Source: a virus (Duplodnaviria; Caudoviricetes). From it: a DNA stretch of 44,968 nt. Position 1 is the first letter of the stretch. Each line of letters begins with the position of its first letter. Position numbers and translations under genes: made by a program. The DNA is taken from positions 1 to 44,968 of the IMG/VR virus record IMGVR_UViG_3300048599_000066, one strand, 5' to 3'. Positions 2,708-37,095 of the stretch are shown piece by piece. A model generated the notes under the pieces. It was given only the letters and a program-made list of their open reading frames with translations. It was not told the origin of the DNA and ran no database searches.

Positions 2708-3070
2708 ATGAAGTCGGAAAAGGTTTCCAAAGTGCGTGAACTGGTAATGGCAGTGGCGGGACCGAAGACAGTCAACGATACGCGGGAGACGTGGTTGCGT
2801 CGTGCCGCGCGGCTGGCTGGCACGTCCTATCGTCAGGCCAAGGCGCTTTTCTACTGCGAGATTGAAGACCCTCACCACCCAACGGTCACGAAATTCAAGG
2901 AAGCGGCTGGCAAACATGAAGCCCGACTTATGGCTGAACAATTCGAGCGCATGGCTGTCTCGCTCAACCAGAGGGATTCGGATTTCCATTGCCAGGACAT
3001 CGCTGCGCTTCTCAGCGCGGCTCGCGCGCTTCGCGGTCTGGATCGCGCCAGAGATAACCGAGACGACTAA
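2708..3070 (+). CDS. Hypothetical HTH regulator (CII-like position)
   Basis: WLRRAARLAGTSYRQAKALFY helix-turn-helix-like; position after cro. Confidence 0.6.
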   Translation: MKSEKVSKVRELVMAVAGPKTVNDTRETWLRRAARLAGTSYRQAKALFYCEIEDPHHPTVTKFKEAAGKHEARLMAEQFERMAVSLNQRDSDFHCQDIAALLSAARALRGLDRARDNRDD

Positions 3071-3105
3071 CGGCGGCTGAGGGGCCGCAAGCACGAGGGG
3101 CAGCA

Positions 3106-3693
3106 ATGAACTTCCATTCGTCCAGAGACGACATGGTTCGCGCCGCGCGGGCGGTAGCCAAGTCGCAAAGAGAAATGGCTGCGCTGATCGGCATTAGCCA
3201 CGGCCGGGCTGTCAATTACTGGATCAACAAGCTCGGGTTGCCAAAGTTCGGGCGATACCGCCACCACTCCCCGGAGACTATCGAGAAAATCAAGTCGTTA
3301 TTTGCGGGCGGGACCTCGATTGGCCGGATTTCAACCGAGATGGGGCTCACGCGCAATCAGGTGGCGGGGGTTCTGGACCGCGCCAATATGTTCACGCACC
3401 GGGAACGCGGGAAAAAGAAAGAGAAGATCAGGGTTAGAACGCGGCCTTTTATCGTGCCGGGGCCGAAGCAATTCCACGCTGTAAAATTCAAACAGCGATC
3501 CGCGCCCGTCGAGCCGTTGCATATCCCGTTTCTGGAATTGGAACGGGATCATTGCCGCCAGCCTTACGGCGACGACCCAAGCACCATGACGTTCTGCGGT
3601 CATCCCAAGACTGTCGGCTCCTATTGCGCGCAACACGCCGCGATCAATTATATGCCGCCGCAAGCCCGCAATCGCAATGCGAGGCCGCGATGA
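3106..3693 (+). CDS. gcrA: GcrA-family cell-cycle regulator homolog
   Basis: SIGRISTEMGLTRNQVAGVLDR HTH plus C-terminal LELERDHCRQPYGDDP..FCGHP..YCAQHA typical of GcrA; extra N-terminal HTH. Confidence 0.85.
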   Translation: MNFHSSRDDMVRAARAVAKSQREMAALIGISHGRAVNYWINKLGLPKFGRYRHHSPETIEKIKSLFAGGTSIGRISTEMGLTRNQVAGVLDRANMFTHRERGKKKEKIRVRTRPFIVPGPKQFHAVKFKQRSAPVEPLHIPFLELERDHCRQPYGDDPSTMTFCGHPKTVGSYCAQHAAINYMPPQARNRNARPR

Positions 3694-6686: not shown

Positions 6687-7214
6687 TTGCTCAAGAAACG
6701 CAAGGTTGAACCAACAGAACCGCTCCATGATCGGAGGTCCATTGACCTTCTCGCGAATGCACGGGTTGCGCTCGCGGTCGTGGATGATCCACTGGAGCCG
6801 GGGGCCAAGCTCCAGGTGTTTCGGTCAACCCGCGATGACGTGTTGGCTGAGATGCTTTCGCGCCGGGAAATCGACCAAGCGCAATACGACGCGGGGCGGC
6901 TATACGAGAAATTCGCAGAGCAAGCCGAGATCGGGAATGTCCAAGCCATCGATCCCGGCAAGGAGGCCGTGGATGGGGGTAGGGGGTATGAGGGCATCAC
7001 TGATGCGCAAATAGACGCCGTGCGGCGGCTATCTGAGGCCGCGCGGGTGCTTGGAATGAGGGGCGAGGGGCTGGTTCGATTCGTGCTGATTAGCAGGCGG
7101 CCGTTCTCGGCGCTTGGGTTGGACCGCCGGCAGACGGACAGGGCGCGGACCAAGTTTTTCACCTATCTGGAAATCCTGGCGCAGTTTTGGGGCTGCGCAA
7201 CCCATACCCGGTAG
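6687..7214 (+). CDS. Putative late-gene regulator/antiterminator (Q position)
   Basis: Last early gene, directly before a promoter-terminator unit; LAEMLSRREIDQAQYDAG motif and C-terminal HTH-like segment; TTG start. Confidence 0.6.
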   Translation: MLKKRKVEPTEPLHDRRSIDLLANARVALAVVDDPLEPGAKLQVFRSTRDDVLAEMLSRREIDQAQYDAGRLYEKFAEQAEIGNVQAIDPGKEAVDGGRGYEGITDAQIDAVRRLSEAARVLGMRGEGLVRFVLISRRPFSALGLDRRQTDRARTKFFTYLEILAQFWGCATHTR

Positions 7215-7220
7215 GGGTAC

Positions 7221-7250
7221 TTGACAAGTGTACCACTGATATGGTACATT
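7221..7250 (+). promoter_or_regulatory. Late promoter (pR'-like) with overlapping inverted repeats
   Basis: TTGACA-18bp-TACATT; palindromes ACTTG-A-CAAGT and GTACCA-N6-TGGTAC overlap it. Confidence 0.65.
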
Positions 7251-7269
7251 CTTGCCATAGTGCCGAATT

Positions 7270-7400
7270 GCGGATTAGACCAGTCCGCTCCAAGTACGGG
7301 TAACGACGCGCTGCGTCGTGGCAGGAGACCGGATAGCGGTGCACCGCGAAGCCGGAGAGCGAACTAAGCCCCGAACGCTTTGAGCCGGGGATGCCCGTAG
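7270..7400 (+). ncRNA. Candidate structured RNA with H-type pseudoknot in the late leader
   Basis: Closing helix 7295-7302/7392-7399; hairpins 7303-7319 and 7329-7355; crossing helices 7356-7361/7376-7381 and 7369-7373/7386-7390. Confidence 0.55.
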
Positions 7401-7418
7401 TTCTTTCTTGTAGGGAAA

Positions 7419-7601
7419 GTGAATCAGAAACCCACCCGCGCTTACGGGCGCGTTTTCTATTTCGGCAAGCGCAAAGACGAACAGCGGAAGCGCGAACTTG
7501 CCGGAATGGCGCTTGGTGGGATCGATCCTGAGTTCGACGACATTCTGCAAGCAGAATTAGAAATCAGCGTGCCCGCCGATTGTATCGGTCCCGAACGCTG
7601 A
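7419..7601 (+). CDS. Possible small protein
   Basis: GTG start with AGGGAAA upstream; overlaps a terminator and hairpins, so doubtful. Confidence 0.3.
   Translation: MNQKPTRAYGRVFYFGKRKDEQRKRELAGMALGGIDPEFDDILQAELEISVPADCIGPER
7437..7462 (+). terminator. tR'-like intrinsic terminator
   Basis: CGCGCT-TACG-GGCGCG-TTTTCTATTT, about 200 nt after the late promoter. Confidence 0.65.
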
Positions 7602-7900
7602 GGGGATAACCCGGCTGAATTGACCGGGCCAAGGGCGAATATAGAACGTCTGCCGAGGGCGGGTGAACAAACGGCAGGGCGCATCGCAAGGTGTCCCGTG
7701 GATCGCGGGTGCAAAGCCATTCCCGCGCATTCAATGAGATCGGGACAAGATCACTGCGGCGTCGCAAGACGGCCTTCGGGTATGACCGCAAATCCCTCGG
7801 TTCTCGGTCAAGTTTTCAGGACCGTTTCAAATCGGCTTTGCTGACAAAACCGGGCGGAGATGCATCGAACCTCGGACACAAACGGGCGAGGCCACTAATT
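7560..7900 (+). ncRNA. Candidate large multibranch structured RNA
   Basis: Many nested helices with GCAA and UUCG tetraloops, closed by 7600-7608/7792-7798; no convincing ORF. Confidence 0.55.
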
Positions 7901-7904
7901 CAGG

Positions 7905-8077
7905 CAGCAACCATGTGGCTTTTATATTCATGACCAGACAAGAAATACAGGAGCGTCACGACCGCGTTATGGCCCGCATCAAAAGAAACGGGTTCCCGAA
8001 GCGTCCGATAAGCGCGGCCGACAGAAAGCGGTTTGACGAACTAAAGGCGGCCAAGGACAGCAACCATGTGGCTTTTA
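7905..8077 (+). repeat. 20-bp exact direct repeat CAGCAACCATGTGGCTTTTA (7905-7924 and 8058-8077)
   Basis: Read directly from the sequence; brackets most of the small ORF 7930..8109. Confidence 0.9.
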
Positions 8078-36859: not shown

Positions 36860-37095
36860 GTGTCAATGGTGTGTCAGTTTTCTCGCACGTTCCCGTGGTG
36901 TTCACGCTTGAAAGTGCATGAACTTGCGAGGTCCGAAAGTCGGGACCGCTTATCTGTTGCGGATTCTTGGGGGCTTCTGTATATCGGCCGTGGGCCACCC
37001 CTCCCCAACGAGGGGAATTGCATTCATCGTCTATCGTCATGATGCTGCTTTCTTTTTTGCTTCACCAATAATCGGCTGTGTCAGCGGTGTGCCAG
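36860..37095. other. Putative attP
   Basis: Paired arm-type repeats GTGTCAATGGTGTGTCAG (36860-36877) and GTGTCAGCGGTGTGCCAG (37078-37095) flank an inverted repeat CCCCTC-N6-GAGGGG (36998-37015) at the int 3' end. Confidence 0.6.

Follow-up and report, generated by a model that had tools for sequence, protein, structure and literature searches.

What is the RNA that lies between a promoter-like site and the packaging genes of a temperate phage, and does it do more than lead into a message? The question arises from IMG/VR record IMGVR_UViG_3300048599_000066 (Duplodnaviria; Caudoviricetes), whose whole stretch of 44,968 nucleotides is called the window here. A first-pass annotation had described, at 7250-7462, a pseudoknotted RNA of about 200 nt between a late promoter and its terminator, too elaborate for a passive leader, and had proposed a ribozyme, a riboswitch or antiterminator, or a trans-acting RNA. 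The helices it named, the promoter-like site and the terminator-like hairpin are all present where it placed them. Comparison with other phages shows that the predicted RNA domain is a conserved, self-contained fold that two phages without kinship carry among different genes and that close relatives can dispense with. A passive leader is thus set aside, as that annotation had argued, by the homologue and the covariation described below.

Genomic setting

With its portal, coat, terminase, integrase and Erf genes, the window represents a complete temperate phage of the P22-like kind. A GcrA gene and a serC leader suggest a host among the alphaproteobacteria. The serC leader (36988-37025), the sole match in an Rfam scan of the window at gathering score, adjoins the integrase gene and is possibly an attachment site. 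The RNA falls between a DUF6456-like gene and the packaging genes, with the following neighbors:

6687-7214, + strand: 175-aa DUF6456-like protein, probably a Q-like late regulator (context, outside the RNA)
7221-7250, + strand: sigma-70-type promoter-like site, TTGACA (7221-7226) and TACATT (7245-7250), a 10/12 consensus match
7274-7418, + strand: insert of about 145 nt that carries the RNA domain and is missing from relatives
7419-7601, + strand: 60-aa ORF with a GTG start and no assigned function, occurring with and without the RNA
7437-7462, + strand: terminator-like hairpin (7437-7452) with U-rich tail, inside the 60-aa ORF

Lambda makes a short pR'-tR' transcript under Q-type late control. 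The corresponding arrangement, a Q-like gene and then a promoter, is present here by consensus match and conservation, with the DUF6456 link as a lead. A similar promoter-like site precedes the leader in three relatives, L002, L078 and L112. The DUF6456 assignment of the upstream gene comes from PF20057, matched by 2 of 59 aligned relatives, and from an Atlas score of 0.95; a host search with the DUF6456-like alignment gave 0 of 121. DUF6456 is presumably the C-terminal part of GafZ/GafA, and a DUF6456-like gene in this position makes a Q-like late promoter plausible. As in lambda pR'-tR' and in GafZ antitermination (as the available portion of PMC11150451 describes it), the promoter follows the regulator gene directly, a hairpin comes some 200 nt downstream and packaging genes lie beyond. 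Unlike those systems, the hairpin here is in a coding frame, and the RNA domain is optional cargo that occurs elsewhere in a different context. At 2400-2950 of L112, a close relative, the DUF6456-like regulator is replaced by a different gene, which a similar promoter follows.

The RNA fold

The elements of the fold, all on the + strand, are these:

7270-7288: hairpin, partly inside the insert
7295-7399: closed RNA domain including P1 and P2, both of which also form, with unlike sequence, in the homologue L141
7295-7302/7392-7399: P1, 8 bp with one U-G
7303-7319: P2, 7 bp
7322-7361: 5' half of the conserved core, 34/40 identical in L141 and also seen in contigs of run X3
7329-7332/7352-7355: base of P3, CCGG/CCGG, invariant, with an AUA/GAAG internal loop in the window
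7336-7347: upper hairpin of P3
7356-7361 and 7376-7381: pseudoknot strands, AGAGCG with its partner in the P4 loop
7369-7390: P4 hairpin region, whose 12-nt loop holds AACGCUU, the pseudoknot partner
7369-7373/7386-7390: P4 stem, with 3 double compensatory changes relative to L141

The 5' core thus contains the junction strand CAGGAGA, P3 with its internal loop (AUA/GRAG across copies), the covarying upper stem, a UGCA loop and the strand AGAGCG. Support for this fold comes from homologues and not from folding energy. Against shuffled controls, the segment 7250-7462 that had been presented as a compact fold is unexceptional (z -0.70, with 54 of 200 shuffles as good), and the closed domain at 7296-7403 reaches a z of -1.20 (22/200 as good); the domain of L141 scores z -4.0. 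Minimum-energy folds of the long transcript of the window lack P1, and other pairings compete. In L141 the nested model lies 14.7 kcal/mol above a minimum-energy fold that unpairs P3, a figure that leaves the pseudoknot and non-canonical pairs uncounted.

A homologue in an unrelated phage

Five pattern scans of the viral collection returned 0, 16, 3, 14 and 10 stretches, which were judged by eye. One of the 43 is a true match: L141, found by a relaxed pattern (10 stretches, 1 true), in phage G405. G405 is unrelated to the window phage (51% versus 58% G+C). The RNA core is the sole significant DNA match between the two (E 2e-5), and Erf is the sole protein match among 174 long frames. The L141 RNA sits on the coding strand between two short ORFs of the recombination-replication region, that is, among early genes, and a consensus scan of its strand finds no promoter or terminator.

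Over the aligned length, 54 of 78 bases are identical between window and L141. Among the 59 aligned positions that lie outside the search pattern, 35 agree, which for a single hit has a binomial p of 5e-7 (10 were examined). Double compensatory changes affect 5 of the 20 model pairs, in the P3 upper stem and P4, a number reached by 13 of 500 shuffles and against 0-1 in slid controls. The pair table has four G-U cells and no A-C cell, which favors both an RNA and the + strand. P1 is 11 bp in L141 and of different sequence, and P2 likewise differs. The pseudoknot helix is nearly invariant and the P3 base fully so, hence neither shows covariation; covariation is no proof of the pseudoknot, and both elements are predicted pairings compatible with the alignment. 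Covariation among homologues, named in the first-pass annotation as one check on the fold, therefore holds for the P3 upper stem and P4 and does not extend to the pseudoknot helix or the P3 base. The full-length comparison rests on two sequences, the window and L141.

The self-complementary UGCA loop is found in both full-length copies despite a changed stem (it is not readable in the X3 contigs). Two contigs of wastewater run X3 hold partial copies, corresponding to 7317-7365 and 7319-7386, with unlike flanks (most of the differences are not listed), and a third variant of the P4 stem, around the same loop word, appears in the loose end of X3 record 4. Positions 7344-7445 recur unchanged in a contig of run X1, which places the filled form beyond this record as well. 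The RNA is single copy in each genome. The gene that follows it is the 60-aa ORF in the window and an unrelated 56-aa CxxC ORF in L141, and in both copies 16-19 nt separate the end of the RNA from the start codon.

L141 has some further features of its own. A 14-bp repeat lies on both sides of the 56-aa CxxC ORF. Positions 2876-3095 and 3198-3275 form a degenerate direct repeat, whose second copy has the outer helix words (see below) without the RNA core. On the minus strand, 3282-3359 is a tRNA-like piece with a T-arm that gives a weak Rfam score and is not called by ARAGORN.

An optional insert

The two closest of 88 loci fetched with the upstream gene, L002 (79% identity) and L078 (60%), keep the promoter, the 5' hairpin and the downstream sequence and are missing the RNA domain. 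L112, which was retrieved by its small ORF, differs in the upstream gene and has a promoter-like site, again with the domain missing. In run X2 a contig (record 2) follows the window as far as 7273 and is at the first codon of the small ORF about 15 letters on (30 loose letters); a contig of X3 probably has the same empty form (again 30 loose letters). The RNA was found in none of 77 related phage records, many of them fragments, that either the upstream gene or the small ORF had retrieved. Since the late genes of L002, L078 and L112 are kept without it, the domain is an optional, exchangeable cassette. The insert splits a hairpin that is intact in the empty forms, which makes gain in the lineage of the window the simpler reading. 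Its flanks show no terminal repeats and no target duplication. The view of the RNA as part of a late promoter-terminator unit accordingly divides: a Q-like late promoter is plausible, and the tie between RNA and unit is not supported, given the three relatives that do without it and the early location of L141.

No joint in the contigs skips the RNA, and contigs are silent on expression and ends. No RNA-type run is listed among the sequencing runs that carry the RNA sequence. Another optional stretch lies at 7646-8065, where 327 and 419 bases are missing from contigs of runs X3 and X5, so the leader accepts several inserts.

Ends of the domain

In each copy, UGCCGAAU precedes P1 by about 30 nt and GUGAAU follows P1 at 10-20 nt; parts of these words also occur in empty alleles. 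An outer helix, P0, may enclose the domain:

7261-7267, + strand: UGCCGAA, 5' strand of P0, pairing with 7461-7467 (pair probability 0.65-0.96)
7461-7467, + strand: UUCGGCA, 3' strand of the possible P0, made on read-through only

A 7-bp UGCCGAA/UUCGGYR helix can close 7261-7467, the L141 RNA, the core-less L141 repeat and, in L113, the empty leader. L078 forms it with 5 bp, and L112 is without the 5' word; in relatives free of the insert, UGCCGAA belongs to a local hairpin. A 7-bp partner for this word arises by chance in 383 of 3000 shuffles, and with a chance of 7-13% per case P0 is suggestive. If it is real, the unit of about 200 nt forms only when the hairpin at 7437-7462 is read through. 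Of the size first given to the RNA, about 200 nt, the conserved unit accounts for only some 75-105 nt, while the 7-bp outer helix may close a domain of 207 nt.

The terminator-like hairpin and the 60-aa ORF

The small ORF, which heads the late region, is kept in L002/L113, L078 and L112 and is found in four database proteins; its variable sites by codon position (24/57, 24/57 and 43/57 in four sequences) are biased to the third position, as in a coding sequence. The terminator-like element overlaps ORF codons 7-15, the hairpin itself codons 7-12. All four relatives form the hairpin (-5.9 to -16.4 kcal/mol), with the U-rich tail directly behind it in two of the four, and nine bases of its 3' side are invariant in 4/4. 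Because of these invariant bases and the presence of the hairpin in each relative, 7437-7462 may serve both coding and predicted termination. The terminator recognized in the first reading therefore stands as a hairpin with a U-rich tail, with the qualification that it also codes, within a conserved 60-aa ORF. Translation could block termination, that is, act by attenuation.

A second conserved element, at 7570-7660, covers the 3' end of the 60-aa ORF and is common to L112, L113 and L078. It has a 10-base word in common with the P4 loop (41 of 2000 shuffles), a word that two relatives lack.

Searches for known families

The statement that the RNA belongs to no recognized family is borne out by Rfam 15, which gives the RNA no match at gathering score and only chance matches at E up to 10; no ribozyme model scores at E up to 10 on either copy. 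As for catalogued RNAs nearby, the window has only the serC leader and G405 only two tRNAs. Comparison by blastn with cultured phages and plasmids gives no matches or chance ones. A genome-collection scan with a single pattern, too strict for a copy of the L141 type, gives three chance matches. Among sampled whole genomes, BLAST matched 2 of 401, both by chance, the pattern matched 0 of 401, and the model gave weak matches in 4 of 107 (two in long reading frames, two judged from alignments). Over 100 sources, model R1 finds nothing beyond chance in 98.

Core motifs of the RNA retrieve only unrelated papers from the full-text literature, with no description of the RNA found there. They are absent from the PMC10085705 supplement and from the readable PMC10690425 supplements, whose large alignment files fall outside that search and may bear on novelty. 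The PMC10690425 survey, in its accessible part, required three IMG/VR regions per motif; two are found for this RNA. Several more specific candidates were rejected. A scan of 37 proteins of the window and 32 of G405 finds no reverse transcriptase of the kind expected for a retron or intron. Opposite-strand coding is rejected, since the overlapping ORFs on the minus strand fail to align. Resemblances to twister, hairpin, ZTP, T-box and C4 RNAs gave no score in Rfam. Mimicry of 16S helix 42, suggested by a likeness of P3, gave alignments no better than shuffles (128-673 of 1000); both 16S genes compared have three short words in common with it, and model R1 gives the helix no score. The rare, uncatalogued fold in unrelated phages is real.

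Alternative explanations

A core this invariant, with no fixed gene partner and in relatives that do without it, argues for chemistry or a conserved binding partner over control of one gene. Binding is a rather doubtful candidate, if a close rival of the ribozyme reading below: the cassette would use the short promoter-terminator transcript (about 7257-7460) as a slot for expressing a trans-acting protein-binding RNA, abundant in the lysogen, that binds a conserved host protein as a decoy or in counter-defence and may dimerize through the UGCA loop. The CCGG/CCGG helix, the loop-E-like internal loop and the UGCA loop resemble a recognition surface, the last being kept in both full-length copies though its stem changes; promoter and terminator-like hairpin bracket the RNA in the window; and, like a moron, it is dispensable in relatives. 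Yet the L141 strand is without promoter or terminator by consensus scan, and no partner gene travels along with the RNA. As for a dimer, 1/16 of tetraloops are self-complementary by chance, and a favorable self-duplex energy follows from any such hairpin. The ornate multimeric RNAs GOLLD, ROOL and OLE are several-fold larger than this one. Their uncatalogued function, pseudoknots and possible self-pairing loop, as presented in the available portion of PMC12286853, are paralleled here in a shorter RNA without an Rfam match, for which multimers are a possibility.

A switch in cis, riboswitch-like or put-like, acting on initiation of the next small gene or on read-through of the 7437-7462 hairpin, is the second close rival, though unlikely. 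It would suit the placement of both copies 16-19 nt ahead of a start codon, the formation of P0 on read-through only, and the ability of the junction strand to pair with a U-rich strand behind P1, as it does in one computed fold. That alternative pairing, however, is no better than in shuffles (358/2000 and 153/2000 as good), the downstream gene and late operon exist without the RNA in L002, L078 and L112, and the genes downstream of the two full-length copies are unrelated and of no consistent class. HK022 put RNA is a structured RNA of about 70 nt near a promoter and before a terminator. The RNA here is alike in size and in its place in the window, but it has no Rfam or sequence match to put, its L141 copy is not promoter-proximal by scan, and relatives do without it. 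The riboswitch and antiterminator proposals are weakened by the relatives that lack the RNA and by the position of L141 between early genes, with neither promoter nor terminator by scan.

Still less probable is a passive knot that blocks ribonucleases and stabilizes the downstream message. A compact pseudoknotted domain does stand just 5' of small genes in both phages, with flanks that vary freely, yet a roadblock needs shape over sequence, and 34/40 core bases are invariant, single-stranded ones included. The least probable account is a selfish or leftover element (a non-autonomous mobile piece, a site that acts as DNA, or coding on the opposite strand) whose RNA does nothing useful. Its appeal lies in rarity, one true match beyond the window in the five viral-collection scans, and in a patchy distribution among relatives; single copy number in each genome, an insert in the window free of terminal repeats and target duplication, compensatory changes and G-U pairs that indicate RNA, and minus-strand ORFs that do not align all speak against it.

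A candidate self-cleaving ribozyme

The leading reading, itself tentative, is that the domain may belong to an undescribed class of self-cleaving ribozyme and serve to process phage transcripts. Self-cleavage is favored by analogy with prophage hammerheads and by anatomy. Ribozyme candidates in PMC10085705, in the portion available, have a core of 50-80 nt, conserved junction bases, a multistem junction or pseudoknot, and covariation; all of these are found in this RNA, on the evidence of two full-length sequences. Prophages of Agrobacterium and Azorhizobium have hammerheads on either side of single genes of unrelated kinds, where they cut, according to the accessible part of PMC3088659, an analogy backed by the review PMC6765202 so far as available. 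Here the RNA and the element at 7570-7660 similarly flank one small gene. A member of such a prophage cluster would have catalogued ribozymes nearby, and none is near this RNA in either phage.

The RNA resembles the small phage and prophage ribozymes (hammerhead, twister, twister-sister, pistol, hatchet, HDV-like) in size, knotted multistem junction, invariant junction bases, variable closing stems and intergenic place beside small unrelated genes. It differs in that Rfam ribozyme models give it no score, and its cleavage is a candidate activity. To our knowledge its order of helices (junction strand, E-loop hairpin, and H-type knot inside a closed junction) fits none of them. A new small self-cleaving class, of a fold unlike those catalogued and swapped between late and early operons, is a candidate that we regard as rather doubtful. 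The + strand would be transcribed from the promoter at 7221-7250; P1 would isolate the domain from its flanks; and the invariant junction strand, P3 internal loop and pseudoknot might pack into an active center. The transcript would be cut just ahead of the small gene, giving a new 5' end and a change in stability or translation. Exchange between phages may proceed by recombination at the short common end words UGCCGAAU and UGAAU, perhaps with help from Erf-like annealing proteins, which each phage encodes. The odds of a ribozyme are lowered because none of the 10 non-hammerhead motifs tested cleaved, by the available portion of PMC10085705, neither phage has a catalogued ribozyme, and no cleavage site can be named.

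Only about ten classes of natural self-cleaving RNA are known, and several came from phage-linked motifs. The candidate RNA is short, its ends are defined and it comes in two natural variants, which makes it readily testable by transcription, and near-identical phage leaders with and without the cassette provide a natural control. Should the RNA not cleave, it would still represent an uncatalogued module, one whose core is unusually invariant and which passes between phages that are unrelated.
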